Source of the DNA: Escherichia phage vB_Eco_F31
Reading direction: 5' to 3' (one strand)
Sequence record: OP870147.1
DNA: 64,000 nucleotides
Shown here in pieces: positions 35,089 through 59,066 of the stretch. Position 1 is the first letter of the stretch. Each line of letters starts with the position of its first letter. Below the pieces are notes generated by a model. That model saw only the letters and a list, made by a program, of their open reading frames with translations. It was not told where the DNA came from and made no database searches. Position numbers and translations under genes: made by a program.

Positions 35089-35703
35089 CTACTTAATGAA
35101 ATTAATTTCTACCGGATGAACAACAGGTTGAGCAGTGATATATTGAGTAATTGCTTTCATGACTAGAGCTTCAGAACCAGGATTTTTCTCAACGAATTCA
35201 CGTGCTAGGTTATGAGCTTCGAGTTCACTCAATAAACCGGAACGCTGGCATCCACGGTCTTGAGTACCCTGTTCAGATAAAAGGACTACTACATATTTTT
35301 CATCGTCGTAGGGCTTAGCCAGTTGAGCAAATGTTCCTTTACTTCCAAAAGGAGAGTTATGTCGCCACATCACACCGTGAGGAGTTTCAACCTTCGTATA
35401 TTCGTGCGGTCCATTTTTCTTAGTTTCTTGATGTGGAACTTCATAGACCTTAGGGTTAGGACATTCAATAAAATGCTCATCTAAATCGGTCGAGAATATT
35501 AAAGTAAAACAATTACTGAATTTACCAACACCGGCCTGATAAATTTTACCTTCAGAAGTTCTAATTTCACAAACTGAGCCGGCATCAGTAACTTCTAAAA
35601 CTTCAAAAGGCTCAATAAGGTCATATGAGAACATGTTTTTAAGGCGTGGAGTAATATCCCCATTTTTAAAATTCATTTTATAAAAAGTATTAACTTTAAA
35701 CAT
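35089..35703 (-). CDS. hypothetical protein (204 aa from ATG at 35703)
   Basis: Track start at 35733 lies inside a GC hairpin; second ATG at 35703 has GAGG RBS 7 nt upstream. Confidence 0.55.
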   Translation of the reverse strand: MFKVNTFYKMNFKNGDITPRLKNMFSYDLIEPFEVLEVTDAGSVCEIRTSEGKIYQAGVGKFSNCFTLIFSTDLDEHFIECPNPKVYEVPHQETKKNGPHEYTKVETPHGVMWRHNSPFGSKGTFAQLAKPYDDEKYVVVLLSEQGTQDRGCQRSGLLSELEAHNLAREFVEKNPGSEALVMKAITQYITAQPVVHPVEINFIK

Positions 35704-35715
35704 AATTTCCTCAGT

Positions 35716-35731
35716 GGGAGCCGAAGCTCCC
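35716..35731 (-). terminator. intercistronic hairpin GGGAGC-UUCG-GCUCCC (minus strand), no U-tract
   Basis: 6-bp stem with UUCG loop between stop of 121-aa gene and RBS of 204-aa gene. Confidence 0.35.
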
Positions 35732-35738
35732 AATTAAT

Positions 35739-37152: not shown

Positions 37153-37401
37153 TTATTTAAGGGTAATAACAAAATGACGTACTGCTTTACGAGCTGCAGA
37201 AGCCAAAGGCTTAGCATATTTCAGTTCATCTTTTGCTTCCAGTTCAGAGGCCAAAGCTGCCTGTACCGGGTTCAGATGTTTGAAATAATGCAGGATTTCC
37301 AGTGCTTCGGCTTCAACATCAATCGACGCGCCGTAGTTTTCGTGACCGTTATTCCATGCGTTTCGTTGCAGTTCAAGAGCGTGTTGTAATTGTTTAATCA
37401 T
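37153..37401 (-). CDS. rIII: lysis inhibition accessory protein rIII
   Basis: 82 aa, same length as T4 rIII; position adjacent to gene 31. Confidence 0.75.
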   Translation of the reverse strand: MIKQLQHALELQRNAWNNGHENYGASIDVEAEALEILHYFKHLNPVQAALASELEAKDELKYAKPLASAARKAVRHFVITLK

Positions 37402-37525
37402 TTTAAATTCTCAATTCGAGATAATATTTAGTAGCCACGTTCGTCTGAATTTCACCTTCTTTCGACAAGTCTCTCAGTTGTAGGCTACCGCTTAGAAGAG
37501 TGTTCTCTTCATATAGTTATTTATA

Positions 37526-37858
37526 TCACTTATAAAGACACGGAATAGCTTTATAGTGGCATGTTACGAATTTCTGTTTAATTTCTTTAGGTTGTTTAAG
37601 TCCCAAAGCCACAAATGGATGTGGAACATTTCGAATTTGTCCAACTGGTAGTGGAGTCAAATCACCGACTTCAACAAAACCTTCAGGAACATCAGGACCT
37701 ACAGAATGAACTACACATAGTTCAGGAACTTCACCTTGAACACGTTTACCAATCACAAGTCCTGATTCGGTAACTTCTTCATCACCTGCTTGAGCGGGTT
37801 CAGAAACCAGAATGACATATTCACCAACAGCACGAATTGGGAGTTGTACTTCGGACAT
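37526..37858 (-). CDS. 31: co-chaperonin gp31 (GroES analogue)
   Basis: 110 aa; position between rIII and cd as in T4; MotA-box middle promoter motif upstream. Confidence 0.8.
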
Positions 37859-37888
37859 CTTATTTCCTTGTTGTTTGACGATAGATTA

Positions 37889-37913
37889 ATAATACCATAC
37901 TATTCGTAAAGCA
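37889..37913 (-). promoter_or_regulatory. middle-promoter-like motif (MotA box TGCTTTA, 12 nt, TATTAT) upstream of gene 31
   Basis: Minus strand atatGCTTTAcgaatagtatggTATTATtaa, then AAGGA and ATG of gene 31. Confidence 0.4.
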
Positions 37914-37915
37914 TA

Positions 37916-38212
37916 TTACATAAGAAGCAAACGTTCTACCGGAGTACCATCAACCGAAATTACTTTATCAAGGCGGAAAGAACGCCACTGACCTAACTTG
38001 GTATCGAATGCTCGAACTGATTCACGAGGTTCAGAACGAACTTCTGATGCCGGATTGTTATTTTCATATTTGACTTCAAGTTCATCGCGAGAAGCAAACA
38101 TAGTGCGTACCTCACCGTTAGCCTTTTCAAATACAACACAATGAACGCCTACAGACAGAATAGTTTTAATACGTTCACGAAGAACCATAGTTTCTTGTTC
38201 AGTTAAAATCAT
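37916..38212 (-). CDS. hypothetical protein (98 aa from ATG at 38212), position of T4 31.1
   Basis: Track start at 38224 is GTG; internal ATG at 38212. Confidence 0.5.
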   Translation of the reverse strand: MILTEQETMVLRERIKTILSVGVHCVVFEKANGEVRTMFASRDELEVKYENNNPASEVRSEPRESVRAFDTKLGQWRSFRLDKVISVDGTPVERLLLM

Positions 38213-38213
38213 A

Positions 38214-38795
38214 TTATTCACCACAAAAGTTTCGGATTTGTTCCCAATTCAGAGAACGAAGATTATTACGAGAGTACTGAATTACTTCAATACCGGCTTG
38301 TTTTAGAATGTCTGCCCAATTTTCAGGAGATCGGTCGTATAATTCTGCATATACAACCTTTTTAATACCTGACTGTGTAATAGCTTTAGTGCAATCAGGA
38401 CACGGAGAAAGCGTCGTATATAACGTAGCACCTTCAATAGAATTACCTTTACGAGCTGCAAATAAAATTGCATTCAGTTCAGCATGGATTTCATTATTAG
38501 CAGACCATGCACTATGAGCGGCCCGATGTTCTTTAGCCAAAACAAAATTATCCACCCGTCCAAATGCTGTAGTGCCTTCTTTATGCCCAGCAACGATGAC
38601 CGGGCTTGGTTTATTCTTCAACCAACCGTTTTCGGATGCATGTTCGCAACAGTTTGTACCACCTGAAGGAGAGCCATTATAACCTGTAGAAATAATGCGT
38701 CCATCTTTTTCAATGACGGCGCCAACTTTCCATGAACAACATTTTGATTCTTGAGAAATCAGATATGCAATCTGAAGGTATGTGCTAGCTTTCAT
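38214..38795 (-). CDS. cd: dCMP deaminase
   Basis: 193 aa, same length as T4 Cd; zinc-binding deaminase motifs (HAE..., SPCPDC). Confidence 0.9.
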   Translation of the reverse strand: MKASTYLQIAYLISQESKCCSWKVGAVIEKDGRIISTGYNGSPSGGTNCCEHASENGWLKNKPSPVIVAGHKEGTTAFGRVDNFVLAKEHRAAHSAWSANNEIHAELNAILFAARKGNSIEGATLYTTLSPCPDCTKAITQSGIKKVVYAELYDRSPENWADILKQAGIEVIQYSRNNLRSLNWEQIRNFCGE

Positions 38796-39787
38796 TATTG
38801 AACCTTATTAATATAAGTTAACAGCTCTTTAGTTTGTTCCCAACTGATGCACGCATCGGTAACGGAAACGCCATAGGACATATTATCAGAAATTTTTTGA
38901 TTTCCTTCATGTAGGAACGATTCTATCATAATTCCTTTGACCAAATCATTAGCTGCTAAATTTTTACCAATACCAATTTGATTGCTATAATGCCCATCAG
39001 CGTTTGCATGGCTACAGTCAACCATTACATAATGATTCAGACCTACTGCCCTTGCTTTGTTAGAAGCTTCTTGAATATCAGAAGAATGATAGTTCGGGCC
39101 GTTGGTCCCGCCACGCAATACGATATGCGTATTCTGATTACCTTCAGCTTCAACAATGCCTACAGTACCATCGACGTCCATACCCATATACCGATGAGGC
39201 CAGGCGGCACTATACATCGCGTCTGTAGCTACTTTAATAGAACCATTGGTTGCGTTCTTGAAGCCTACGCACATCGGTAGACCTGAAGCAATTTCACGAT
39301 GTGTCTGACTTTCAGTCGTACGGGCACCAATAGCAACCCATGAGAAAATACCAGAAAGATACTTAATCGTGAATGGGTCTAATACTTCAGTTGCTAATGG
39401 AAGTCCCATACGTAGAAGTTTACGACACAATGTTCGTGCAACTATAAGACCGTGGTTCATATCAAAACTTCCGTCAAGATATGGATCATTTACAAGACCT
39501 TTCCAACCTACGGTAGTTCGAGGCTTTTCAAAATAAACGCGCATCACTAACAGAACATTAGGAAGACGAGTTTGAAGTTCAGCCAGACGTTTGCCGTATT
39601 CAACAGCAGCAATAGGGTCATGAATTGAACAAGGACCTACAACAATAAGTTTGCGTGGGTCTTCACCGTTCATAATCGAATTAACTTGTTCGCGATGAGA
39701 AGCCACTTGTGATGCGTAAGCTTCCGACAAAGGAATAATCTCGGCCAGTTCTTTTGGAGAAATAAGTTTTCCGACGACAGGTAACAT
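38795..39787 (-). CDS. 3-deoxy-D-arabino-heptulosonate-7-phosphate (DAHP) synthase, class I (AroG/AroF/AroH family)
   Basis: 330 aa; VGPCSIHD, VYFEKPRTTVGWKGL, GARTTESQ, DCSHAN, ESFLHEGNQ, SVTDACISWE align with E. coli AroG catalytic/metal-binding motifs; AAGGA RBS before ATG at 39787. Confidence 0.9.
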   Translation of the reverse strand: MLPVVGKLISPKELAEIIPLSEAYASQVASHREQVNSIMNGEDPRKLIVVGPCSIHDPIAAVEYGKRLAELQTRLPNVLLVMRVYFEKPRTTVGWKGLVNDPYLDGSFDMNHGLIVARTLCRKLLRMGLPLATEVLDPFTIKYLSGIFSWVAIGARTTESQTHREIASGLPMCVGFKNATNGSIKVATDAMYSAAWPHRYMGMDVDGTVGIVEAEGNQNTHIVLRGGTNGPNYHSSDIQEASNKARAVGLNHYVMVDCSHANADGHYSNQIGIGKNLAANDLVKGIMIESFLHEGNQKISDNMSYGVSVTDACISWEQTKELLTYINKVQ

Positions 39788-39907
39788 AACAATCCTTAGG
39801 AGATATAAACAGATTCTGATTCAACAATACCTTTAACCGGATTAGACAGGCTAAGTTGGTAGTGCTCAGATTTATGACCATTCTCGATAGTAATGAGATA
39901 GCTCTCA

Positions 39908-40144
39908 TTATAGTGTTCCATATACTCGAGTTGCTTCAACTAAACCGTCACTGCCTAATTTAAGGCTAGTAATCTGGTCACCATCTTTAGGATTAACGAT
40001 TATGAGAAAAGAACGTGGAGATTCTTGAATAACTCGTAATGTTGCATCCTGGAAACGTTCAGACACTTTATTGATGAGTGCTTGAGCAAATTCTTTTACT
40101 TTAATCTGAAATTCGTGTACTGTAATTGGATTTTCACTTAGCAT
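39908..40144 (-). CDS. hypothetical protein (78 aa)
   Basis: ATG at 40144 with AGGA RBS and early-promoter motif upstream. Confidence 0.5.
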   Translation of the reverse strand: MLSENPITVHEFQIKVKEFAQALINKVSERFQDATLRVIQESPRSFLIIVNPKDGDQITSLKLGSDGLVEATRVYGTL

Positions 40145-40173
40145 TTCGATTTCCTCATTGTATTGGTAGAGTT

Positions 40174-40203
40174 ATAGTATCACAACTCCACCATGTTGTA
40201 AAC
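40174..40203 (-). promoter_or_regulatory. early-promoter-like motif GTTTAC-N18-TACTAT
   Basis: Minus strand GTTTAC ... TGATACTAT, leader ...CAATGAGGAAATC then ATG of 78-aa gene. Confidence 0.45.
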
Positions 40204-40205
40204 CA

Positions 40206-40481
40206 TTAAATTGCTTTGCATTCAATTTTTTGTGTACCGAAATTGATATCGCATTGGATAACTAAATCACCGTCAAGATCAAATACCACTATGACGTGTG
40301 CAGACCCAGGGAGAAGAGTAATAGCAATAGAATCTACTTGGTCTGGGAGCAAAGCATTGAGTACATGAGTTAGTTGAGCATGAACTCTGAGTTCGGCTGC
40401 ATTATCAAGCACTTCAAACATATTATTAGCAATAATCTGACTGAAGACTACCTTTACAATTTCAGAATATTTAGGGAACAT
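40206..40481 (-). CDS. hypothetical protein (91 aa)
   Basis: ATG ORF in operon orientation in the cd-pseT block. Confidence 0.5.
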   Translation of the reverse strand: MFPKYSEIVKVVFSQIIANNMFEVLDNAAELRVHAQLTHVLNALLPDQVDSIAITLLPGSAHVIVVFDLDGDLVIQCDINFGTQKIECKAI

Positions 40482-40488
40482 AATTACC

Positions 40489-40713
40489 TCAGTGTACAGT
40501 ATTTACTTTAACTCGAACAACAAATCGCTCGGTCGGTTCACCTACAGGAACAAACTCTACATGATATTCACCTTTGTAACGAGTATTCAGGTCATTACGA
40601 ATTCCTGCGAGTTTGTTGATTAATGTAGGACTCATATTAAGTCCCACTAGTTTACGAAGCATTTTGTATGCTTCATCTTCGATTTCATGATGTTTATCGT
40701 ACATAGTTTTCAT
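40489..40713 (-). CDS. hypothetical protein (74 aa)
   Basis: ATG ORF in operon orientation. Confidence 0.5.
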   Translation of the reverse strand: MKTMYDKHHEIEDEAYKMLRKLVGLNMSPTLINKLAGIRNDLNTRYKGEYHVEFVPVGEPTERFVVRVKVNTVH

Positions 40714-40884
40714 TTAACCATTCAATTGCCTGGTCGACGTTATCAAATATACCGCCGTCCAAACGTTCTTCACGCTCATAGTCCAGCACATCAATACCGA
40801 ACTGTCCATTTACTAAAGGCCAGGCTACAAACAAATATTCTTTATGATGTTCGATGGCCTCAATCACTTCATATAATCGTTTCA

Positions 40885-40885
<1 letters not shown>
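40694..40885 (-). CDS. hypothetical protein (63 aa)
   Basis: ATG at 40885 overlaps pseT stop; overlaps next ORF by 20 nt. Confidence 0.45.
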
Positions 40886-41971
<1,086 letters not shown>

Positions 41972-41972
<1 letters not shown>

Positions 41973-42271
41973 TATTTGATTCCTAAGAAAGCTTCAAGAA
42001 TACGAATGTTGAGTTCGCGCCGGTCTTTATTAATTTCAGCAACGTTTTTATTAATTGACGTACTTCTAACGTTTGAAGAAATAAATTTAATCATATGACT
42101 TTTGAGTTGTTGCAAATCCAACCCTTTTTCTTTAGCAGCTTTACGAAGAGCTTTACCTGCTTCATCTAGTGCTTTTGCCGCATCTTTATCATAATTGCCA
42201 AGTGACATTCCGCGGCAGATATCAATATACTCATCAGACCGTTTGATGTAATTCTCTAGTAATGTTTTCAT
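41972..42271 (-). CDS. hypothetical protein (99 aa)
   Basis: ATG at 42271 with AGGA RBS and early-promoter motif (perfect TATAAT) upstream. Confidence 0.5.
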
Positions 42272-42299
42272 TTAGATTTCCTCAATTATCCATAGGAGC

Positions 42300-42329
42300 A
42301 TTATACTCTGCTCCCGAGAGTTTGTAAAC
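42300..42329 (-). promoter_or_regulatory. early-promoter-like motif GTTTAC-N18-TATAAT
   Basis: Minus strand GTTTAC ... TATAAT (perfect -10), then GAGGA and ATG of 99-aa gene. Confidence 0.5.
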
Positions 42330-42553
42330 TATTTTACTAAAGATTCAATATACTCATGAAGAGCTTTAGTCGCTACTGCCCACTTATTCTGATATTCATT
42401 TTTCAGATTAGCACGAGACTGAACTAACAAGCGGTCATTAGTCGGAGGCAAAGATTCTAATCGTTGAATCTGGCGTCCATAAATCATAGCCGCCATTTCA
42501 GATTCATAGATAAGCCCTTTAATGTATTCATGCTGTTCTTTAGTCATTGGCAT
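42329..42553 (-). CDS. hypothetical protein (74 aa)
   Basis: ATG ORF overlapping o-spanin end. Confidence 0.5.
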   Translation of the reverse strand: MPMTKEQHEYIKGLIYESEMAAMIYGRQIQRLESLPPTNDRLLVQSRANLKNEYQNKWAVATKALHEYIESLVK

Positions 42554-42834
42554 TTTTCCTCTTTTAAACCACTACGATAATAACATAACATAGTCTTCTG
42601 GTCATGTATATATCTTTTTACGTCGTTTAACCAGATACGAAATTCTTGAGAGTCTTCAAATGGCATTCCAACCCACGGATTACCATCAATAACCTTTACT
42701 TGCCATTTCTGGTTGTATTCGGAAATAGGCGTAGGCCATGAAGGATGTAAAGTTTCTTTAGGGCTTACTGGCACATCCTGAGTACATCCAACTAGGAGAC
42801 CAATAGATAATACAGCCACAGTTAATTTAATCAT
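42544..42834 (-). CDS. pseT.2: outer-membrane spanin (Rz1-like lipoprotein)
   Basis: 96 aa; signal peptide with lipobox LLVGC; adjacent to an i-spanin-like gene as T4 pseT.2/pseT.3. Confidence 0.65.
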   Translation of the reverse strand: MIKLTVAVLSIGLLVGCTQDVPVSPKETLHPSWPTPISEYNQKWQVKVIDGNPWVGMPFEDSQEFRIWLNDVKRYIHDQKTMLCYYRSGLKEEKCQ

Positions 42835-43187
42835 TCTGAGAGCTTCCTGAGGTCTTCTGCAAAGGAATCGAAGGACCTGTTGATTTGTTTTTCGACCAAT
42901 CCTGGTTTACTTGCCACCACGTTCTTCTTCTTCGAATCCTTACGGAGCTTTTCATTTTCGGCCTTAAGTTGGTCAGCTAAAACACGATTCTTATAAGTCA
43001 TTTCTTCGATTGACTGATATTGAGCTTTGAAGTCGTCTAATACTTTAGCATTGTTTTTAGCAGTCTCTTTAACAGAAGCTAATTCAGTATTCAACGAATC
43101 AACTTTGTTGTTTAAGATAACTATTGTTATAGTAGAAACTAGAGCAAAAGCTGCTACTATAGCATAAATCGGATTTACTTTAAGCAT
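42831..43187 (-). CDS. pseT.3: inner-membrane spanin (Rz-like)
   Basis: 118 aa; N-terminal transmembrane helix (IYAIVAAFALVSTITIVIL) then coiled-coil; between alc and o-spanin. Confidence 0.65.
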   Translation of the reverse strand: MLKVNPIYAIVAAFALVSTITIVILNNKVDSLNTELASVKETAKNNAKVLDDFKAQYQSIEEMTYKNRVLADQLKAENEKLRKDSKKKNVVASKPGLVEKQINRSFDSFAEDLRKLSE

Positions 43188-43675
43188 GTTTTAATAATCT
43201 CAATGATTTCATCTCGGGATAATCCATTGATAAGAACGGTTTTCAAACCATCACACTGGATTTTGTACGATTCAAACAATACACACAACTCTTCTGCTGT
43301 ATGATATGGACTTGAAATTCCGAGGCGGTTGAATTTGTCGGTAAGAGGGTCGCAAATAATGTAGAATTTTATACCTGCGATATGTACGTTTGGTTGACTA
43401 ATATTAACGAAAACATTAGCGTCATATTTAGTCAAATTGTTTTGAAGAAATTCTACCATGGCATTAACTGCTTCTGGCATCGCTTCGCGTTTCTCTTCAG
43501 CGTATCGGGTGGAATACTCTTTTTGTTTTACTTTCTTTTTAAGATTTTTGGCCAGTGTAACACGTAGGTCAGTAAGATAACCAACTGGACGTCCTTTCTT
43601 AAAGACTCGGATTCCGTCAGTTGTGTCTCCAAAAGCGGTTACGACCATATCATTAGTAATCAATTGCATATTCAT
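43175..43675 (-). CDS. alc: Alc (inhibitor of host transcription on dC-DNA)
   Basis: 166 aa (T4 Alc 167 aa); position between rnlA and spanins as in T4. Confidence 0.7.
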   Translation of the reverse strand: MNMQLITNDMVVTAFGDTTDGIRVFKKGRPVGYLTDLRVTLAKNLKKKVKQKEYSTRYAEEKREAMPEAVNAMVEFLQNNLTKYDANVFVNISQPNVHIAGIKFYIICDPLTDKFNRLGISSPYHTAEELCVLFESYKIQCDGLKTVLINGLSRDEIIEIIKTCLK

Positions 43676-43705
43676 AATTTTCTCCTCGTGTTATTGATAA
43701 AAGCC

Positions 43706-43735
43706 ATAGTAACACCTTCCTTGGTGTTTGTAAAC
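43706..43735 (-). promoter_or_regulatory. early-promoter-like motif GTTTAC-N18-TACTAT upstream of alc
   Basis: Minus strand GTTTAC ... TACTAT, then GAGGAG and ATG of alc; directly after rnlA stop. Confidence 0.45.
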
Positions 43736-43737
43736 CA

Positions 43738-44871
<1,134 letters not shown>

Positions 44872-44888
44872 TCAGTTAGTTTTTTTAA

Positions 44889-44918
44889 ATTGTACCACAA
44901 TCCTTGTGGTATGTAAAC
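44889..44918 (-). promoter_or_regulatory. early-promoter-like motif GTTTAC-N18-TACAAT upstream of rnlA
   Basis: Minus strand GTTTAC ... TACAAT; spacer contains inverted repeat CCACAAggaTTGTGG; then GAGGA and ATG. Confidence 0.45.
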
Positions 44919-45328
44919 TACTTTTTCTTATGTTGGATATTCCAAGGCGGGTTGAACTTTTTGATAAAAAGTGGTTCTTCAAGGTCCATTGTTGCGATGG
45001 TCATTGAACCAAGTTCGTTGGTGACTGAAAGGTCAAAACATTGGCGGGCCCAGAATTCAACCTTTTTGCCTTGCATTAAGGCATCCAAAATCATAAGTGA
45101 TTTTCTTGAATCTGAAGTCTGGTCTTTTCGATTTATGGCTGTTCGATAATAGTTAATGCGTTTCTTTAAATTCTTGGTTTTACCAATATACACGAGTTCG
45201 TCATCTATAGCAATAGCATATATGACATTTTTCTTATTAGGGACATCAACTGTTTTAATTGTTGCATCTTCTAATAGCTCCAATTCTGTATATTTAATAA
45301 AGGAATATTCGGCGGCGATATCTTTCAT
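44918..45328 (-). CDS. denA: endonuclease II (GIY-YIG-like)
   Basis: 136 aa, same as T4 DenA; VIYAIAIDDELVYIGKT motif. Confidence 0.85.
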   Translation of the reverse strand: MKDIAAEYSFIKYTELELLEDATIKTVDVPNKKNVIYAIAIDDELVYIGKTKNLKKRINYYRTAINRKDQTSDSRKSLMILDALMQGKKVEFWARQCFDLSVTNELGSMTIATMDLEEPLFIKKFNPPWNIQHKKK

Positions 45329-45336
45329 AATAAAGT

Positions 45337-45350
45337 GGGACCGAAGTCCC
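45337..45350 (-). terminator. hairpin GGGAC-UUCG-GUCCC (minus strand) between nrdB stop and denA start
   Basis: 5-bp stem with UUCG loop 9 nt upstream of denA ATG; no U-tract. Confidence 0.35.
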
Positions 45351-45354
45351 GTCC

Positions 45355-46533
45355 TTAGAAATATTTTTTGTATGAATTGATTACATTTTGGTCTACATCA
45401 TTATCAATTTGTGCGACAAGATAAGAACTGATTTCAACTTCTTGTGGGGCTGCTTGAACCAAATCAGAGTTCAAATACTCACGAATCCATGGAATAGGAT
45501 GACGAGTTGATACGTCTTTAAGAGGACATGGCAGACCACAACTACGCATACGAGACACGGTAAGATAATCCACAAATTCACTTAGGATTTTAACATTTAG
45601 ACCTGGAAGAGCACCATCTTTAAACAAGTGTTCAGCCCATTCTTTTTCTTGAGCGTTAACTTCCATGAAAATATCAACTGCTTCTTGTTCACACTCTTGA
45701 GCAATTTTGACCCATTCATCACCGTCTTCGCCATCTTGTAAAGCACGAATAATATATTGAGTGCCCTTGAGGTGGAGCTGTTCATCACGAGCAATGAACT
45801 TCATAATCTTGGCATTACCTTCCATGATTTCCATATTCTTGTGGAAGTTAAAGGTGCATGCGAAAGATACATAAAAACGAATAGCTTCTAAGGCATTAAT
45901 AACGTGCAAACAGAGGTAAAGAGATTTCATTAGCTCACGCTTCCAATATGTCTCATGCTCAATAGCATCTTCAATAACGTCTTCGTCTGCATTAATTTCT
46001 TTTTGGTATTCGATATCAGCTTTAGCGTTTTCCCAATAACGAGCTTTAACCAGAACATCATCATAATATCGTCCGATAGATTCGGCACGCTTCATAATAG
46101 CTTCATCTAATACAATCTCATCAAACACCTTCGATGGATCTGTATAAAGATTTCGCATAATATGAGTATATGAACGAGAGTGAATAGTTTCACTGAAAGT
46201 CCATGTAGCAACCCATGTATCTAATGAAGGGTCTGAAAGCAATGACATAAGTACCGCAGATGGTGCTCTACCTTGGATAGAATCTAATAATGATTGATAC
46301 TTAAGGTTGTTGGTAAAGATGTCCTGTTGGAACTGTGGAAGCTTATTAAACTGGGCCGAATCCAACATCAAGTTTACTTCCTCGGGACGCCAAAAGAACG
46401 AGAGCTGCTTTTCGATAAGCTCTTCAAAAACTTTATGACGCTGAATATCATACCGTGCGAGGCCAAGACCAGAACCAAAGAACATCGGTTCGTTCAAAAC
46501 ATCGACTTGTTGTGTGTTAAAAACTGTACTCAT
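45355..46533 (-). CDS. nrdB: ribonucleotide reductase small subunit (uninterrupted)
   Basis: Track start 46545 is GTG; ATG at 46533 gives MSTVFNT as T4 NrdB; di-iron/tyrosyl radical protein; no intron-like interruption. Confidence 0.9.
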   Translation of the reverse strand: MSTVFNTQQVDVLNEPMFFGSGLGLARYDIQRHKVFEELIEKQLSFFWRPEEVNLMLDSAQFNKLPQFQQDIFTNNLKYQSLLDSIQGRAPSAVLMSLLSDPSLDTWVATWTFSETIHSRSYTHIMRNLYTDPSKVFDEIVLDEAIMKRAESIGRYYDDVLVKARYWENAKADIEYQKEINADEDVIEDAIEHETYWKRELMKSLYLCLHVINALEAIRFYVSFACTFNFHKNMEIMEGNAKIMKFIARDEQLHLKGTQYIIRALQDGEDGDEWVKIAQECEQEAVDIFMEVNAQEKEWAEHLFKDGALPGLNVKILSEFVDYLTVSRMRSCGLPCPLKDVSTRHPIPWIREYLNSDLVQAAPQEVEISSYLVAQIDNDVDQNVINSYKKYF

Positions 46534-46587
46534 TATATTTCTCACTTAGTTATTAACTCATCCATGAGTAAATTATAATAAAAAGTC

Positions 46588-48843
46588 TTAAAGCTTACAA
46601 GCAGAACAATCTTCTGCTTTAGGTGTTTCTAATTCATAGTCGTCTGTACCAGACCCATCACGAGTGTTATGATAGTAGAGGTTTTTTCCGCCAAAGTACC
46701 AGAAGTAAAGCAGATCGTCAAGCATTACTGACATTGGCACTTTACCTTTCTCAAATACTGCAGGGTCATAGTAAGTATTAGCAGAAGCAGATTGGCACAC
46801 CCATTTCAACATGATAGCAACTTGGGTCAAATAAGGTTTATTACCTTTCTTAGCAAGTTTCCACGCGTAATCGTAAAGACTCATGTTATGTTCGATATTA
46901 GGAACAACCTGTCGGAAGTTGCCTTCTTTAGATTCTTTAATACTTACTGGACCACGTGGTGGCTCAATCCCGTTTGTAGAGTTTGATACTTGACTGCTTG
47001 ACTCACAAGGCATGAGTGCAGACAACGTTGAGTTACGAATTCCATGTTCTTTGAGTTCAGCTCGAAGTTCTTCCCAGTCACAGACGTAGTTCGGGGCTGC
47101 GATTTGGTCAATCTTTTTATTGTACCAGTCGATAGGTAATTCGCCTCTAGACCATTTAGTGTCTGAATAATACTCGCAACATCCTTTTTCTTTGGCGAGT
47201 TTGATTGATGCTTTGATAAGGCCATATTGTAATCTCTCAAACAATTCATGAGTCAAATCGTTAGCGTCTTCATATGAAGCAAAGTTAGAAGCTAACCATG
47301 CAGCATAGTTCGTAACACCAACACCAAGATTACGACGCTTTTTAGCTTTTAAAGCTTCTGGAACCGGATAATCTTGATAGTCTAACAGGTTATCAAGTGC
47401 ACGTACTTGTACTTCAGCAAGTTCATTAATTTTATCTTGGTCTTGCCAATCAAATTTATCTAATACAAAAGCAGATAATGTGCATAAACCAATTTCAGCA
47501 TCAGGACCATTCACATCATTAGTTGGAATAGCGATTTCACAACATAAGTTACTCTGACGAATTGGAGCTTTTTCACGAATAAACGGAGTGTAGTTATTCG
47601 TGTTATCAACAAACTGTGGATAAATTCGAGCAGTACCAGAGCGTTCAGTCATGAACAATTCAAAGAGTTCTAGTGCTTTGATTCTTTTCTTTCTGATTGT
47701 TGGGTCTTTTTCAGCTTTCTCATAAAGCTCACGGAATTTATCTTGATCTTCAAAGAACGAGTAGTATAGTTCGCCTGACATTTCGTGAGGGCTAAATAAA
47801 GTAATATAATCATTTTTACCAAGGCGTTCCATCATAAGGTCATTAATCTGAATTCCGTAGTCCATATGCCGAATACGGTTTTCATCCACGCCTTTGTTAT
47901 TTTTCAGAACTAATAGGTTCTCTACTTCTAAGTGCCACATCGGATAATACGCTGTAGCAGCACCACCACGAATACCACCTTGAGAACAAGATTTTACTGC
48001 AGTTTGGAAATGTTTCCAGAATGGAATAACGCCCGTATGTCGAACTTCACCCATACCGATCTTAGAACCTTCTGCACGAAGCATACCAACGTTGATACCA
48101 ATACCAGCTCGTTTAGAAATATATTCAATAATTGATGCTGAAGTTTTGTTAATAGATTTTAACGAATCACCGGCTTCAATAACTACACAACTAGAGAACT
48201 GGCGAGTTGGAGTACGAGCACCTGCCATAATTGGGGTTGGCAATGAAACTTGATGAGTAGAAACGGCATCATAAAAACGAATAATATGTTTCAAACGGTC
48301 ATGAGTTTCGTCTTGATGCAATGCCATGCCAATAGCCATGATAGCAAACTGTGGAGTTTCATAAATCTTCCCAGTTGTTTTATCTTTAACTAGATATTTT
48401 TCTTTAAGCTGCATAGCACCAGCATAAGTCAGGTCAAAGTCTCGTTCATGTTTAATCTGTGAATCGAGATAAATGATTTCTTCTGCTGAATATTGAGACA
48501 ACATCTCAGGGTCATATTTGCCTTCATTAACACAATAAGAAATATGGTCGATAAAAGCAGGCGGTTCAAACTGCCCATATACATCTTTACGAAGTGCAAA
48601 CATTAGCCCTTTGGCGGCGACATACTGATAATCAGGTTCTTCGACAGAAATCGAGTTAGCTGCAACTTTAATACAAATCTTCTGGATATCTTTGGTGCTC
48701 ATCCCGTCGACAAGATGGGTCTTAATTTCTTCGTACAATTCATATGGGTCGATTTGTGTTCCTTCACATTGCCAGGTCAGAACTTGGATAATTTTCTGTG
48801 CATCAAAATTTTGGGATACGCCACTGCTCTTAGTTACTTGCAT
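46588..48843 (-). CDS. nrdA: ribonucleotide reductase large subunit
   Basis: 751 aa; ATP-cone N-terminus and class I RNR catalytic regions; size as T4 NrdA. Confidence 0.95.
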   Translation of the reverse strand: MQVTKSSGVSQNFDAQKIIQVLTWQCEGTQIDPYELYEEIKTHLVDGMSTKDIQKICIKVAANSISVEEPDYQYVAAKGLMFALRKDVYGQFEPPAFIDHISYCVNEGKYDPEMLSQYSAEEIIYLDSQIKHERDFDLTYAGAMQLKEKYLVKDKTTGKIYETPQFAIMAIGMALHQDETHDRLKHIIRFYDAVSTHQVSLPTPIMAGARTPTRQFSSCVVIEAGDSLKSINKTSASIIEYISKRAGIGINVGMLRAEGSKIGMGEVRHTGVIPFWKHFQTAVKSCSQGGIRGGAATAYYPMWHLEVENLLVLKNNKGVDENRIRHMDYGIQINDLMMERLGKNDYITLFSPHEMSGELYYSFFEDQDKFRELYEKAEKDPTIRKKRIKALELFELFMTERSGTARIYPQFVDNTNNYTPFIREKAPIRQSNLCCEIAIPTNDVNGPDAEIGLCTLSAFVLDKFDWQDQDKINELAEVQVRALDNLLDYQDYPVPEALKAKKRRNLGVGVTNYAAWLASNFASYEDANDLTHELFERLQYGLIKASIKLAKEKGCCEYYSDTKWSRGELPIDWYNKKIDQIAAPNYVCDWEELRAELKEHGIRNSTLSALMPCESSSQVSNSTNGIEPPRGPVSIKESKEGNFRQVVPNIEHNMSLYDYAWKLAKKGNKPYLTQVAIMLKWVCQSASANTYYDPAVFEKGKVPMSVMLDDLLYFWYFGGKNLYYHNTRDGSGTDDYELETPKAEDCSACKL

Positions 48844-49139
48844 ATGTCCTCTATATTAAATTCGTCTTTAAAAAGTTTATTAACCACTAGAGCTATTATA
48901 TCACCATGACAGGCTTTTGGTTTACATGTGCATCCCAGACGCATACCACGTAAAGGTTCTAGATGAGCTTTTGTGATTTCTCCACACTTAATTCTCTTAA
49001 TAAAATCCTTTTTGAAAAGCTCAATAGCTTCTTCTCGGGAAGAGGCATCCTTGCCTACATAATTTCCCCAGAATGTGCCACGATGAATATTAACATCAAA
49101 ATCGGATTTATATTTATTCACAACGCGGCACATTTTCAT
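48834..49139 (-). CDS. small Cys/His-motif protein (101 aa), position of T4 nrdA.1
   Basis: Motif LGCTCKPKACHGD; overlaps nrdA start by 10 nt; ATG overlaps upstream stop. Confidence 0.55.
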   Translation of the reverse strand: MKMCRVVNKYKSDFDVNIHRGTFWGNYVGKDASSREEAIELFKKDFIKRIKCGEITKAHLEPLRGMRLGCTCKPKACHGDIIALVVNKLFKDEFNIEDICK

Positions 49140-49393
49140 TACATGTCCTCTGCAATAATTTCTTCGTATTCTTTAGGAGTCAAGACCGTGATATTAAAAT
49201 AAACCAACGGTTCTTTTTCTATACCGAATCCACCACAGAATTCACGATATTCATAAATTCGTTCATGTGAATAACAAATGAATCGTTCACCTTTAACTGT
49301 GATTTCACTATTTGGTGAAGGGATATCCAGTTCACTTGGATTTTTCATTTCAAAAATTGTGGTGCCATATGAATTAATAAAACGTAAAATCAT
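49139..49393 (-). CDS. hypothetical protein (84 aa), between td and nrdA
   Basis: ATG ORF in operon orientation. Confidence 0.5.
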   Translation of the reverse strand: MILRFINSYGTTIFEMKNPSELDIPSPNSEITVKGERFICYSHERIYEYREFCGGFGIEKEPLVYFNITVLTPKEYEEIIAEDM

Positions 49394-49394
49394 T

Positions 49395-50255
49395 TTATAC
49401 CGCCATTTTAGCTTTGATAGCTGGATGAGATTCGTAATTTTTAAGAACGAAATCAGAATGTGTCATCGTTCCAGTAACCCAGTCCATTTGGATTTTTGTA
49501 GGCCAATTCTCAAAATTACTAGGCCAATTAATTTCAAGAGAACATAACTCTTTAGGTTCACGACGAAGAACTTCTTTGCATTGTTCTACATGATTGCTGT
49601 AGATATGCGTGTTGCCGCCTGAGAACACTAAATCACCTGGGATAAGGTTACACATCTTCGCTACAATATGCGTCAAGGCAGCGTACGAGGCAATGTTGAA
49701 CGGCAGGCCCAAGAAAACATCTACACTGCGTTGATACCATTGTAAATCAAGATGCCCATTACGCACATTAAATTGATAGAACATATGACAAGGAGGAAGA
49801 GCCATTTGGTCAATTTCGGCAGGGTTCCATGCAGAAACTATTTGACGACGATCATTAGGAAGAGCTTTAATACGGTCGATAGTTTTGACCAATTGGTCTA
49901 CACCACCAAAATCACGCCATTGCTTACCATAAATAGGACCAAGTTCGCCGCTATGATATCCAAGGTCTTTTGCCTGATTTTCATAGTTGTCGTCCCAAAT
50001 AGTTTTACCTTGAATAAGACTACCATGAGTACGAATACGCAAATCATTAACATTGGTAGAACCAGACATGAACCACAGTAACTCGGCAATACAAGCTTTC
50101 CATGCTAATTTCTTAGTTGTTACTGCAGGGAATCCTTTAGTCAGATCCCAACGTAATTTAGTTCCGAACAGGGCAATAGTGCCGGTACCTGTACGGTCGT
50201 CTGTTTCGTAGCCATTTTCTAGGATATCATTAATCAGGTATTGGTATTGTTTCAT
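49395..50255 (-). CDS. td: thymidylate synthase (uninterrupted, no intron)
   Basis: 286 aa, same as T4 Td; catalytic PPCH motif; continuous reading frame. Confidence 0.95.
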   Translation of the reverse strand: MKQYQYLINDILENGYETDDRTGTGTIALFGTKLRWDLTKGFPAVTTKKLAWKACIAELLWFMSGSTNVNDLRIRTHGSLIQGKTIWDDNYENQAKDLGYHSGELGPIYGKQWRDFGGVDQLVKTIDRIKALPNDRRQIVSAWNPAEIDQMALPPCHMFYQFNVRNGHLDLQWYQRSVDVFLGLPFNIASYAALTHIVAKMCNLIPGDLVFSGGNTHIYSNHVEQCKEVLRREPKELCSLEINWPSNFENWPTKIQMDWVTGTMTHSDFVLKNYESHPAIKAKMAV

Positions 50256-50839
50256 TTATAAACGCTCTCAGTAATTTCGGTGAGTTCATCGATTCTGTAG
50301 TAATGAGATTCTACCATAGAACGTTGAAGCATAATATCTTGGATGAAATCTTTATCAAGTTGAACGTCTGAATTAACACGACATTTCTTAATGATTTTAG
50401 TCATCACGATTTCATCGGCATAAGGCAGTGCTTGTTTTAATAAAGCGGGGCCACCAATAACAGATACATCAACATGTTCAGTAGAAAGTTTAAACGGTAC
50501 ATCAGTTGCAGGGCTAAACAGGTTAATTTCATCACCTGTTACCAAGGTAATAAATTCAGATTGGGTGATATAGAACCGTGCAAGTTCATCAGTTTTAGTC
50601 CTAGGCAGTTTTCTGGCCATATCAGTGACAACCACATGAGTACGATCTGGGAGTAGACGAGGTAATGATGCAAATGTATTAGCACCCATAACCATTACAG
50701 TGTTTTTAGTGCGAGCAACAAAGTTACTCATATCTTGTTTGATATGCTTCCATGGAAGTCCATCACCTAATCCAAAAGCATATTCCAGTTTATCATCAAC
50801 TGTTTTAGATGGTGCGCATGCGAATACTAATTTAAGCAT
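50252..50839 (-). CDS. frd: dihydrofolate reductase
   Basis: 195 aa from ATG at 50839 (MLKLVFACAPSKTVD, cf. T4 Frd MIKLVF...); the 223-aa track ORF adds a 28-aa N-terminal extension overlapping the upstream gene. Confidence 0.85.
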   Translation of the reverse strand: MLKLVFACAPSKTVDDKLEYAFGLGDGLPWKHIKQDMSNFVARTKNTVMVMGANTFASLPRLLPDRTHVVVTDMARKLPRTKTDELARFYITQSEFITLVTGDEINLFSPATDVPFKLSTEHVDVSVIGGPALLKQALPYADEIVMTKIIKKCRVNSDVQLDKDFIQDIMLQRSMVESHYYRIDELTEITESVYK

Positions 50840-51080
50840 TTTTAAGTCCTTTAATAACTTTTTGGATTTGTGATTTAGAAGAAACCAAATCAGTCTGGAT
50901 TTGACAACCATCGGTTGGGTCAAATATTATAACACAAACGCGAGGTTTTGTTGTGTATCGCCCGGACAAATCAAATGCGTCACCAATGAATTCGGCCAAA
51001 TCCGGATGGTCTAAATTAACTGAAGTATAAACTTCATATCCGACATCAGCGCCTTGAGAGTATTCAACAACAACATTCAT
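50832..51080 (-). CDS. hypothetical protein (82 aa), frd.1 position
   Basis: ATG ORF ending 7 nt from frd start. Confidence 0.5.
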   Translation of the reverse strand: MNVVVEYSQGADVGYEVYTSVNLDHPDLAEFIGDAFDLSGRYTTKPRVCVIIFDPTDGCQIQTDLVSSKSQIQKVIKGLKNA

Positions 51081-51082
51081 AA

Positions 51083-51331
51083 TTATTTCCTCAGATTTTT
51101 CTTAACAACTTTCCAATCAGCTTTAAACGATTCAACATCAGAGTGGTGAATCCAGAATCCTGCACTTTCACCATCTTCGTAGAGTGGACATCCATCACAT
51201 TCTTCGTTCCAACCCATTTCACGTAAAGCTTCTTCAGCTTGTTCAAGGAGTTCAGCGTCTTTACCAACGATGTTGAAGTACCATTTACCTCTAACTTCAG
51301 AATCTTTGATGCTCTGGCGTTGCAATCTCAT
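51083..51331 (-). CDS. hypothetical protein (82 aa from ATG at 51331)
   Basis: Track start 51346 is GTG; ATG at 51331 has AGGAG RBS and early-promoter motif upstream. Confidence 0.5.
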   Translation of the reverse strand: MRLQRQSIKDSEVRGKWYFNIVGKDAELLEQAEEALREMGWNEECDGCPLYEDGESAGFWIHHSDVESFKADWKVVKKNLRK

Positions 51332-51364
51332 TTTATTCTCCTTCACTTTTGATTTGATAGGGCT

Positions 51365-51394
51365 ACTATAACATAACCCTATCTTGTTATAAAC
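51365..51394 (-). promoter_or_regulatory. early-promoter-like motif GTTTAT-N18-TATAGT
   Basis: Minus strand GTTTAT ... TATAGT; -10 bracketed by inverted repeat GATAGGG/CCCTATC (51356-51383). Confidence 0.4.
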
Positions 51395-51786
51395 TACTTT
51401 TTAAAAGTTTTTTGCAAAAGTTCGATGATTTCGTCGACGTTGGTTTCATCTACGACACAATGTATTTTTGTTACACCTAAAGTTATACCTTCGTTAGTAG
51501 GTTGAGGCTTTACTATATCTACCTCAGTAAAGTATTTGAACTCGTCAGGATAAATCTCAAAATAAGTTTCAATTTCACCACCGGCAGAACATACAGTACC
51601 ATCTTCCATAGTTACACTTACTACGTTTGACGTATCGCTATCATAATCAGGTTCCATTCCGTTTACAACAAAACTAGGCCCATGGAGTTCAATCAATTTT
51701 AACATCTTAGCGTTATTGTGTGGTGCTTCTTGAACAAAGTCATCTTTAAATAAAGGGTTAATGATATAAGATTTTCCGATTTCCAT
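51394..51786 (-). CDS. hypothetical protein (130 aa)
   Basis: ATG at 51786 with AGGA RBS and early-promoter motif upstream. Confidence 0.55.
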   Translation of the reverse strand: MEIGKSYIINPLFKDDFVQEAPHNNAKMLKLIELHGPSFVVNGMEPDYDSDTSNVVSVTMEDGTVCSAGGEIETYFEIYPDEFKYFTEVDIVKPQPTNEGITLGVTKIHCVVDETNVDEIIELLQKTFKK

Positions 51787-51815
51787 TTTGATTTCCTCAT
51801 GTTGTTGATAGGTCT

Positions 51816-51844
51816 ATAGTATCATGTTTAAAGGAAAAGTAAAC
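51816..51844 (-). promoter_or_regulatory. early-promoter-like motif GTTTAC-N17-TACTAT
   Basis: Minus strand GTTTAC ... TACTATAGACCTATCAACAACATGAGGAAATC then ATG of the 130-aa gene. Confidence 0.45.
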
Positions 51845-51875
51845 AACTTTTTCGGCAATTTACAGATACTCAAAA

Positions 51876-51893
51876 GGGAGACCGAAGTCTCCC
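51876..51893 (-). terminator. rho-independent terminator GGGAGAC-UUCG-GUCUCCC + U-tract (minus strand) after gene 32
   Basis: Identical 18-nt hairpin 7 nt after gene 32 stop, followed by UUUUG. Confidence 0.55.
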
Positions 51894-51899
51894 AATTTA

Positions 51900-52802
51900 T
51901 TATAGACCAGCTAACAGGTCATCGAGGTCGCCATCATCAGAGGATGAGGTAGAGCTCATGAAGTCATCTTCAGTTTTTGCAGAACTAAAGGCTTCCATGT
52001 CTTTATCAAAATCGTCAAGGTCAGAAGCAACTTTATCTGCAACAGAAGCTGCTGCGGCTGCTGCACCACCAAGAGCGGCAGTACCAAGAACCTTAGCGAA
52101 AGATTCATTTAATTTTTCAAAGGATTTGAACTGGTCTTTAGCCGTCAAAGTAGTAAGGTCTACCATCTGGTCATATAGTTCTTTCTGGAACGCTTCGTCA
52201 TTAATACGAGGAATTTCAGATTGACCCAAGAATTTAGATTCGTCATAGTTGCTAAAACCAGAAACCTGCTTAGCTTTCAGAACGAAGTTGGCACCTTCAA
52301 ACGGACAAGTAACATCAACTGGAGTTTCACCCATTTCGGTATCAACAGCAATCATTGCATTGATTTTGTCCCAAATCTTTTTACCGAAACGATATTTAAA
52401 TACTTTACCTTCGTTATCTGGAGCTTGAGGGTCTTTAACAACCAGAATATTAGCCCAATAAGAAGTTTTACGTTTCAGTTGAGAATATTCATTTTTGTTG
52501 GTATTGTACAGGTCATTTTTACTAATGTACTGACATACAGGACAAGAGTCGTAATCGCCGTGTGTAGAAGAGCAATTTTCAATATACCATTTACCATTTT
52601 TCTTGAAACCGTGGTTAACAAGAATTGCAAATGGTAGTGCATCATCAGTTTTTGCTGGCAAGAAACGAATTACCGCTTGACCATTACCTGATGCATCTAG
52701 CTTCAGCTTCCATTCGCCTTTATCTTCTGAAGAGAAACCTTTGTTACCGTTCAGTTTAGCCATTTGAGCAGCGAGGTCAGCAGTAGATTTACGTTTAAAC
52801 AT
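51900..52802 (-). CDS. 32: single-stranded DNA-binding protein gp32
   Basis: 300 aa; zinc-binding H..C..C..C region ([11 protein letters not shown]), acidic C-terminus; AT-rich leader. Confidence 0.95.
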
Positions 52803-52918
52803 TATATTTACCTTTATTTAGATTATTTAATTTATTTACAGTTGGTTGCTACGACACTTATACCTCGTAGCTGGTATGATTTATTTATAAAGTAATTTTA
52901 ACACACAAGAAATAAAGC

Positions 52919-54154: not shown

Positions 54155-54161
54155 GTTTACC

Positions 54162-55079: not shown

Positions 55080-55111
55080 ATGAACCTCTTGTTCAGTTAG
55101 TCAACTTGTCT

Positions 55112-55141: not shown

Positions 55142-55144
55142 TGG

Positions 55145-55152: not shown

Positions 55153-55182
55153 AGTATTATTGAAACAATAAAGGAAAAACGA

Positions 55183-59058: not shown

Positions 59059-59066
59059 GAGGTATT

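Follow-up and report, generated by a model that had tools for sequence, protein, structure and literature searches.

The product of positions 38795 to 39787 of the window (the whole 64,000-nt stretch of DNA analyzed, from a T4-like phage of the Mosigvirus group) is a type I-alpha DAHP synthase, the enzyme at the entry to aromatic amino acid synthesis. It is of AroF-like lineage and a member of a clade restricted to T4-like (Straboviridae) phages of Enterobacterales. Its catalytic site is intact and its effector pocket is altered; we read it as a competent enzyme with a dismantled effector site, which most likely condenses PEP and erythrose-4-phosphate (E4P) regardless of Tyr, Phe, and Trp. The gene and its neighbors are arranged as follows.

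38214 to 38795, minus strand: cd (dCMP deaminase), the downstream neighbor, its ATG overlapping the DAHP synthase stop codon (open reading frame, profile match)
38795 to 39787, minus strand: DAHP synthase coding sequence, 330 amino acids, type I-alpha, AroF-like lineage (open reading frame; Pfam, NCBIfam, PHROG, and PDB matches; AF2 model)
39908 to 40144, minus strand: resident RB69-type cd.2 (DUF7320), the upstream neighbor (open reading frame, profile match)
40885 to 41784: pseT, on the far side of the DAHP synthase gene from cd

The open reading frame starts with ATG, its ends match 38795 and 39787 exactly on the minus strand, and its translation contains all six of the motifs GPCSIHD, EKPRTTVGWKGL, GARTTESQ, DCSHAN, ESFLHEGNQ, and TDACISWE. 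An earlier note on this DNA had called it a class I DAHP synthase, which is borne out by these motifs, by a significant match to the Pfam family that it had named, DAHP_synth_1 (PF00793; E=5.2e-75, 252 bits against a cutoff of 25.5), by the NCBIfam aroFGH equivalog TIGR00034 (427.7 bits; cutoff, 173.2) and NF009395 (455 bits; cutoff, 343), and by the Escherichia coli AroF structure 6agm (E=5e-105). The phrog_5045 profile covers residues 1 to 330 (E=3.2e-182). An AF2 model (pLDDT 93.5) predicts the (beta/alpha)8 barrel with the beta6a/beta6b insertion that characterizes the family (strands at residues 198 to 203 and 209 to 214), and a Foldseek search with this model matched the AroG and NmeDAH7PS structures 1gg1, 1kfl, and 4hso at a TM of 0.95 to 0.96 and an rmsd of 1.5 A. 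The score against the aroFGH equivalog, the Cys that binds metal, and KPRT all fit DAHP synthase and rule out a KDO8P synthase or another PF00793 subfamily.

Full-length identity to E. coli AroF (PDB 6AGM), AroG, and AroH is 51%, 47%, and 44%, respectively. The phage enzyme shares with them the (beta/alpha)8 fold with its beta6a/6b hairpin, identical metal ligands, and identical PEP/E4P-binding residues, and it carries the AroF-type Gly at the specificity position. The retention of all four metal ligands and KPRT, which the earlier note had also read from the sequence, was confirmed by alignment with AroG, in which C53, H260, E289, and D311 align with C61, H268, E302, and D326. The corresponding codons, placed by alignment and verified, are listed below.

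39629 to 39631, minus strand: Cys53 codon, metal ligand (AroG C61)
39515 to 39526, minus strand: K88-P-R-T91, substrate-binding motif (AroG K97-T100)
39008 to 39010, minus strand: H260 codon, metal ligand
38921 to 38923, minus strand: E289 codon, metal ligand
38855 to 38857, minus strand: D311 codon, metal ligand

The PEP/E4P-binding residues are R83, K88-P-R-T91, R156, K177, and R225, equivalent to AroG Arg92, Lys97-Pro-Arg-Thr100, Arg165, Lys186, and Arg234. All 12 catalytic and substrate residues are invariant across 123 aligned sequences, which comprise 25 phage-clade clusters spanning 56 to 100% identity (25/25) and the 98 nearest cellular relatives (98/98). This conservation argues for catalytic competence, and the protein would then be a metal-dependent enzyme active on PEP and E4P.

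The feedback-regulated isozymes have an N-terminal segment and a canonical Gln151/Ser180/Pro150/Phe209 pocket, and the phage enzyme has neither. Its N terminus is shorter than those of AroH, AroG, and AroF by 7, 8, and 9 residues, respectively, a smaller deficit than the 10 to 15 residues relative to AroG estimated earlier, and the residues equivalent to AroG 1 to 8 and AroF 1 to 9 are missing; the C terminus is also shorter, and there are deletions relative to AroG at E86 and at 289 to 293. Before the column of AroG P19, the phage clade has 8 to 12 residues and the nearest cellular relatives have 16 to 53, with no overlap, and the N-terminal motif [DN][DN][LIV]x[IV] was not found in the phage clade in the alignment with those relatives. 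Two signals read from the sequence bear on the start site.

39793 to 39797, minus strand: Shine-Dalgarno sequence AAGGA, 5 nt upstream of the ATG
39821 to 39823, minus strand: in-frame upstream TGA

The short N terminus is genuine because the upstream in-frame TGA precludes a longer form; there is no ATG, GTG, or TTG between this TGA and the ATG at 39787, and together with the well-placed Shine-Dalgarno sequence this rules out a mis-called open reading frame. In the N-terminal region of the cellular enzymes, we take AroF Asn8 and Ile11 and AroG Asp6 and Asp7 to be positions with a role; a literature search for AroF N8K turned up nothing. In AroG and AroF, the N-terminal segment completes the inhibitor cavity of the neighboring subunit (PMC10349828).

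The cavity itself is altered at four positions, again placed by alignment with codons verified.

39362 to 39367, minus strand: Ile141-Lys142 codons, in place of the effector-pocket residues Pro150-Gln151 of AroG
39275 to 39277, minus strand: Pro171 codon, in place of the effector-contacting Ser180 of AroG (AroF Ser181)
39188 to 39190, minus strand: Tyr200 codon, in place of the pocket residue Phe209 of AroG

At the AroG Q151 position, 24 of the 25 phage clusters have K and 1 has R, whereas all 98 cellular relatives have Q; the position of S180 is P in 25/25 phage clusters (S in 97/98 relatives), that of P150 is I in 24/25 (P in 91/98), and that of F209 is Y in 25/25 (F in 97/98). Gln151 and Ser180 of AroG hold the inhibitor backbone and Pro150 and Phe209 line the pocket (PMC9529685; for Pro150-Gln151 also PMC10349828). 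Single substitutions at P150, S180, or F209 already confer feedback resistance on AroG, and the resistant enzymes used in metabolic engineering include AroG P150L, S180F, F209A/S, and Gln151 variants, with AroF equivalents (PMC9529685). The phage enzyme differs naturally from wild-type AroG and AroF at sites where mutations abolish inhibition; unlike the laboratory enzymes, it combines four substitutions with the N-terminal loss, a set that evolution has fixed clade-wide. The feedback insensitivity that the earlier note had derived from the N terminus is thus made more plausible by four substitutions at known feedback-resistance sites, and the altered pocket probably leaves the enzyme permanently switched on. 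The isozyme-specific NCBIfam models for AroG (363 bits; cutoff, 568) and AroH (386 bits; cutoff, 463) score below their cutoffs; the profile-search output for this protein contained no AroF-specific model.

When type I-alpha enzymes are sampled more broadly, the pocket positions vary widely, so substitution alone is no proof of lost regulation. An exhaustive search of representatives also ruled out invariance of Gln151 and Ser180 across cellular enzymes as a whole; the claim is confined to the nearest AroF-like relatives. Among 101 diverse representatives of the family, every enzyme with a genuinely short N terminus has a noncanonical pocket (Fisher p=0.003). Such enzymes, drawn from metagenomes and genomes (for example, P0155, P0186, P0202, and P0241), resemble the phage protein in having intact catalytic residues, an N terminus of at most 12 residues, and a noncanonical pocket, but they are only 40 to 49% identical to it and none has the Ile-Lys/Pro/Tyr combination.

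The phage protein might instead be an ordinary Tyr-sensitive AroF-type enzyme that tolerates the shortened N terminus and the pocket changes while keeping feedback inhibition. AroF is its closest solved relative, and the allosteric-network residues D137 (AroG D146), P138 (AroF P148), and L170 are kept, as are the canonical V212 and G202, the Gly that specifies Tyr over Phe sensitivity; the regulatory beta6a/6b hairpin is also seen in the model. The kept residues and hairpin imply that a pocket still exists. Nonetheless, we consider retained inhibition improbable: three elements that engage the inhibitor backbone (the N-terminal segment, Gln changed to Lys, and Ser changed to Pro) have been lost or changed together where one substitution would suffice for AroG, and N-terminal loss coincides with a noncanonical pocket across the whole family.

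The new pocket residues show strict conservation and no sign of decay, so the pocket may still bind something. The Ile-Lys, Pro, and Tyr set might have been repurposed for another effector, giving the phage its own control over flux; examples would be an anionic intermediate of the pathway (chorismate or prephenate) or a metabolite derived from nucleotides or from the phage. The residues are fixed in 24 or 25 of the 25 clusters despite their divergence, the removal of acidic N-terminal residues and the gain of Lys would change the charge of the pocket, and the model retains, with high confidence, the cavity-forming hairpin and helices. The fixation is explained equally well by structural constraint at the dimer interface, however, and loss of regulation is the simpler reading of the same data, which leaves a new effector only a slender chance.

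The presence of the gene is not in itself new, contrary to what the earlier note had implied. It has its own PHROG family (phrog_5045) and is annotated as a DAHP synthase in PHROGs, in RefSeq, and in most of 212 phage records; the GenBank and RefSeq "phospho-2-dehydro-3-deoxyheptonate aldolase" of Mosigvirus, Kanagawavirus, Marfavirus, Bragavirus, and related phages is the same gene in the same cd-adjacent position. The protein is 100% identical to those of O157 typing phages 3 and 6, phiC120, LF82 phages, and others. A 2020 preprint counts it among the auxiliary metabolic genes (AMGs) of Mosigvirus, with its function given as unknown (bioRxiv 10.1101/2020.01.19.911818), and another paper mentions it in a Kanagawavirus (PMC11845039). 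These passing mentions were all that the searchable literature yielded, with no enzyme assay or infection phenotype for the phage enzyme, and neither source mentions the regulatory-site signature or the transfer scar described below. The gene is a known and ordinary one whose presence is a routine annotation that adds little as stated; its apparent regulatory twist is of moderate interest.

In T4, cd.1 occupies this slot and there is no DAHP synthase, in agreement with the earlier placement of the gene in the cd-pseT block as one not found in T4. The synteny is conserved elsewhere, with the gene adjoining cd in Mosigvirus, Marfavirus, Bragavirus, Kanagawavirus, and one uncultured T4-like contig. 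The window is collinear with Mosigvirus Shf125875, at 94 to 98% identity over most of its length and 75 to 85% in the tail-fiber region. Three features on either side of the gene record its arrival.

39796 to 39900, minus strand: remnant of the 3' half of a donor-type cd.2 (YLITIENGHKSEHYQLSLSNPVKGIVESESVYIS*), within the 120-nt "spacer" 39788 to 39907 (translation compared with Kanagawavirus and Marfavirus cd.2 proteins)
39899 to 39911, minus strand: left copy of a 13-nt direct repeat, ATAATGAGAGCTA, comprising the cd.2 stop and a duplicated cd start (sequence)
38786 to 38798, minus strand: right copy of the 13-nt direct repeat, ATAATGAAAGCTA, comprising the DAHP synthase stop overlapping the true cd start (sequence)

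The remnant matches positions 43 to 76 of the 78 in Pfam DUF7320 (E=1e-6) and 41 to 76 of the 77 in phrog_1504. This scar and the flanking repeat show that Mosigvirus received its DAHP synthase from another T4-like lineage. The gene also forms an island of low diversity, being at least 99% identical in 118 of 139 records, versus 7 of approximately 150 for the adjacent cd. It is present in approximately 93% of Mosigvirus-like records and missing from RB69 and approximately 10 other Mosigvirus records. Recent capture from an E. coli host was ruled out, as the best cellular relatives are only 52 to 55% identical and the GC3 is phage-like (0.30 versus a phage background of 0.28). Between genera, dN/dS is 0.15 to 0.21, showing purifying selection; within Mosigvirus there are at most 10 differences per pair, too few to inform. 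The gene is dispensable, as its absence from RB69 and T4 shows, and its sloppy arrival left a scar; both would suit a passenger, neutral or in decay, that recombination had brought into a hyperplastic region. This explanation is effectively refuted by conservation: none of the 139 full-length Mosigvirus copies has a frameshift or stop, no catalytic residue changes even at 56% identity, dN/dS is approximately 0.15 to 0.2, codon composition is ameliorated, and approximately 93% of Mosigvirus-like records have the gene.

One candidate expression signal was found by a consensus scan and inspection of the sequence.

40174 to 40202, minus strand: early-promoter-like site TTTACA-17-TACTAT, between cd.3 and cd.2

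The T4 early promoter Pe133295 is annotated in the same slot, and this site is the probable source of a cd.2-DAHP synthase-cd transcript. Late-promoter control was rejected, there being no TATAAATA on the minus strand from 37518 to 52882. A tRNA scan of the window found none.

The gene lies in the prereplicative leftward gene block and is probably cotranscribed with cd.2 and cd from this early-promoter-like site. With host transcription off during infection, the host aro genes could not be derepressed; a phage enzyme lacking the N-terminal 7 to 9 residues and carrying Lys, Pro, Ile, and Tyr in its pocket would continue to form DAHP at any level of Tyr, Phe, or Trp and so would sustain the supply of carbon to the shikimate pathway. 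An argument from aromatic demand is weak because the aromatic content of the phage proteins (9.6% F+Y+W) is only modestly high.

The benefit of an active enzyme might lie outside the aromatic amino acids, in other chorismate products (pABA/folate for td, frd, and dCMP hydroxymethylase, or quinones) or in a drain on PEP and E4P that rewires host central metabolism. DAHP synthase is the control point for entry to all chorismate products, and cd, nrdAB, td, and frd accompany the gene in the nucleotide-metabolism arm. However, dTMP and hm-dCMP synthesis recycle the folate cofactor rather than consuming it, the 64,000-nt window showed no further gene of the shikimate or folate branches, and where a gene sits within the hyperplastic regions of T4-like phages says little about what it does; we regard such a benefit, too, as improbable. 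A link between DAHP ("arabino") and the arabinosyl-hmC DNA modification that RB69-like phages presumably carry was ruled out, since RB69 lacks the gene.

The evidence that the enzyme confers an advantage comes from the recombination scar and the low-diversity island. A more far-reaching interpretation, which we offer as speculative and rather unlikely, is that the T4-like phage enzymes are a naturally deregulated or re-regulated clade in which the pocket was rebuilt (Ile-Lys, Pro, Tyr, and no N-terminal lid) and then frozen, either locked on or answering to a phage-chosen ligand other than an amino acid, and that recent transfer between genera and near-clonal spread through approximately 93% of sequenced Mosigvirus reflect a strong selective benefit of forcing the shikimate flux of the infected host. 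If feedback insensitivity holds, the clade would be a natural experiment in dismantling an allosteric site without harm to catalysis, and a naturally feedback-resistant type I-alpha DAHP synthase found clade-wide would offer a ready-made part for the metabolic engineering of aromatic compounds. Confirmation would also provide direct evidence of a gain to lytic coliphages when they override the step that commits the host to the shikimate pathway.

The DAHP synthase described in the earlier note is a real feature, and its interpretation there was in essence correct. The ORF listing contained an exact match to the proposed reading frame, which lies between cd and pseT as had been read:

38795..39787, minus strand: DAHP synthase ORF (DAHPS), ATG start, 330 aa
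38214-38795, minus strand: cd, its ATG overlapped by the DAHPS stop
40885-41784: pseT, upstream of DAHPS

All of the motifs originally quoted were found in the translation, which matched Pfam DAHP_synth_1 (E=5.2e-75) and scored 427.7 bits against the NCBIfam aroFGH equivalog TIGR00034 (cutoff, 173) and 455 bits against the subfamily NF009395 (cutoff, 343); it scored under both the AroG- and the AroH-specific NCBIfam cutoffs. The E. coli AroF structure 6AGM was also matched (E=5e-105), and an AlphaFold model (51-sequence alignment; pLDDT 93.5, pTM 0.92) gave a predicted fold with TM scores of 0.95-0.96 when superposed on structures of AroG and of Neisseria DAH7PS. DAHPS was aligned with K-12 AroG, AroF, and AroH (from NC_000913) and 119 database relatives. 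The four metal ligands (C53, H260, E289, and D311) and the KPRT motif (K88-P-R-T91) are kept, as claimed, and together with the remaining substrate-binding residues (R83, R156, K177, and R225) they are invariant in 25/25 clusters of the T4-like phage clade and in the 98/98 nearest cellular relatives. Comparisons across phage genera gave a dN/dS of 0.15-0.21 (dS close to saturation), and GC3 is 0.30 versus a phage background of 0.28. The gene is thus long-standing in phages and subject to purifying selection for enzyme function.

The N-terminus was said to be 10 to 15 residues short. Leu2 of DAHPS aligned with AroG Ile10, AroF Ile11, and AroH Thr9, and the enzyme is therefore shorter by 8, 9, and 7 residues, respectively. 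Two features show that the short form is genuine:

39823-39821, minus strand: in-frame upstream TGA, with no start codon after it and before the DAHPS ATG
5 nt before the DAHPS ATG, minus strand: Shine-Dalgarno AAGGA

Only 8 to 12 residues precede the conserved Pro (AroG P19) in 25/25 phage clusters versus 16 to 53 in the 98 nearest cellular relatives; the motif [DN][DN][LIV]x[IV] is carried by those relatives but absent from the phage enzymes. AroG Asp6/Asp7 and AroF Asn8/Ile11 are N-terminal residues with specific roles.

The effector pocket adds an argument that the earlier note did not make. The inhibitor main chain is bound by Gln151/Gln152 and Ser180/Ser181, and P150L, S180F, and F209A/S are feedback-resistant substitutions (PMC9529685). 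The corresponding positions (AroG numbering) are occupied as follows:

Pro150: Ile in 24/25 phage clusters; Pro in 91/98 nearest cellular relatives
Gln151: Lys in 24 and Arg in 1 of 25; Gln in 98/98
Ser180: Pro in 25/25; Ser in 97/98
Phe209: Tyr in 25/25; Phe in 97/98

This signature falls exactly at the break in identity that separates the phage clade (55.8% or more) from cellular enzymes (53.3% or less). In a wider sample, the best 150 representatives when 1.84 billion proteins were searched exhaustively, position 151 was Gln in 86/152 and position 180 was Ser in 99/152. The effector pocket thus differs greatly across the family, and substitution by itself is no proof of deregulation. The full Ile-Lys/Pro/Tyr set occurred in none of these best 150. 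Two top-scoring representatives, P0121 (799 aa) and P0123 (730 aa), carry two DAHP-synthase-like stretches per polypeptide, tandem or fused. A noncanonical pocket was found in all 15 genuine short-N-terminus enzymes of the same sample versus 40/81 long ones (Fisher p=0.003, with two contig-end fragments counted against the hypothesis), so that the N-terminal lid and the pocket behave as one unit, retained or lost jointly. Caution is warranted because DAHPS keeps D137, P138, L170, the Tyr-type Gly202, and the beta6a/6b hairpin. These would suit an enzyme that remains Tyr-sensitive; given the lost lid and altered pocket, we consider that unlikely. Feedback insensitivity is better supported than the earlier note could know and is still predicted.

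The gene itself is already known, annotated and named in databases and literature; the undescribed part is a modest regulatory-site and evolutionary twist. DAHPS matches phrog_5045 ("phospho-2-dehydro-3-deoxyheptonate aldolase," category AMG; E=3e-182), near-identical DNA occurs in 145 phage records and a protein relative in 212, mostly annotated as DAHP synthase, aroF, or AroG. A 2020 preprint (bioRxiv 10.1101/2020.01.19.911818) counts it among Mosigvirus AMGs, with its function given as unknown, and a 2025 paper reports one such gene in a Klebsiella Kanagawavirus (PMC11845039). Our literature search for biochemical or genetic study of phage DAHPS found none.

The distribution and history that follow are new as far as our searches show. 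The clade is phage only, with every close relative on ~170-kb or T4-like contigs, and the order pseT-small ORFs-DAHPS-cd-31.1-31-rIII recurs in Marfavirus, Bragavirus, Kanagawavirus, and an uncultured phage. Proteus phage PM2 (Bragavirus; L007, 1606-2322 and 3957-4516) has a homing endonuclease separating pseT from the small ORFs, and two additional small ORFs stand between DAHPS and cd, an arrangement that shows the region's plasticity. The window is a Mosigvirus segment (Straboviridae, Tevenvirinae) running from wac/gp13 through the long-tail-fiber genes, collinear with Shigella phage Shf125875. T4 lacks the gene and has cd.1 in this slot; in RB69 cd directly abuts cd.2. RB69 homology ends at 38798 and restarts at 39893, and the following features mark the junctions:

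39911-39899: flanking repeat ATAATGAGAGCTA of the 1.1-kb block, duplicated cd start
38798-38786: flanking repeat ATAATGAAAGCTA of the same block, at the true cd start
39796-39939, minus strand: 47-aa ORF with its own PHROG (phrog_15876), annotated as hypothetical in certain relatives, JK45 and PNJ-6 among them

The 120-nt "spacer" translates as YLITIENGHKSEHYQLSLSNPVKGIVESESVYIS*, which corresponds to the C-terminal half of cd.2 of the Kanagawavirus/Marfavirus type rather than the resident RB69 type, as partial matches to DUF7320 (positions 43-76/78) and phrog_1504 confirm. The 47-aa ORF is what remains of the 3' part of a second cd.2, of donor type, after the recombination event that imported DAHPS. 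Breakpoints, repeats, and remnant together show that DAHPS is a secondary acquisition in Mosigvirus: the block (donor cd.2 3' half plus DAHPS) came from another T4-like lineage, with one crossover by homology and the other by microhomology (AGCTA).

The gene is present in about 93% of Mosigvirus-like records, and its block is a low-diversity island (38795-39907; flanks, 38214-38794 and 39908-40885). Identity of 99% or more is reached by DAHPS in 118/139 Mosigvirus records, by the abutting cd in 7/~150, and by the cd.2-cd.4 flank upstream in 0/150; relative to Shf125875, identity is 99.8% for DAHPS, 100% for the spacer, 92.9% for cd, and 96.6% for cd.2. The pattern fits recent gene-specific spread by recombination, short of a formal sweep test, and suggests a fitness benefit of DAHPS.

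Elsewhere, a 214-aa ORF (35089-35733, minus strand; phrog_17531, no Pfam match) fills a ~860-bp segment versus ~295 bp in Shf125875 (gp30.4-30.6 area) and is another variable cassette of the same early arm. At ~53569, the gp59/gp55 homolog junction, the gene for the SegH homing endonuclease that Shf125875 has between gp59 and gp55 (record 148299-148971) is missing from the window. Regions 50258-51098, 53569-57978, and 58729-61115 diverge from that phage; megablast gave no alignment for the frd (dihydrofolate reductase) region, gp34-gp36 are 75-85% identical versus 94-98% elsewhere, and rIII (37153-37401) only 87.6%. The frd, tail-fiber, and rIII divergence is typical mosaicism. No tRNA genes were found in the window. 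The T4 late-promoter core TATAAATA occurs there 18 times versus 7.1 expected (18 reached in 0/100 shuffles), clustered upstream of structural genes, mostly on the plus strand at 5249-27176.

None of these late cores lies near DAHPS, and the slot of T4 early promoter Pe133295 holds a candidate:

40202-40174, minus strand: early-promoter-like site TTTACA-17-TACTAT

Expression early in infection is therefore probable. A benefit from other chorismate products or from substrate drain we judge about as unlikely as retained Tyr sensitivity; the clade-wide pocket set might reflect repurposing for a new ligand, slightly less likely again. A neutral passenger is very improbable given the low dN/dS. We regard as fairly likely the whole chain of an active DAHPS with a disabled aromatic-amino-acid feedback site and probable early expression. 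T-even phages block host transcription, and so an infected host would be unable to relieve the repression of its aro genes, as expected from established T4 biology. A catalytically active phage enzyme that aromatic amino acids no longer shut off would sustain the flow of PEP and E4P into the shikimate pathway.
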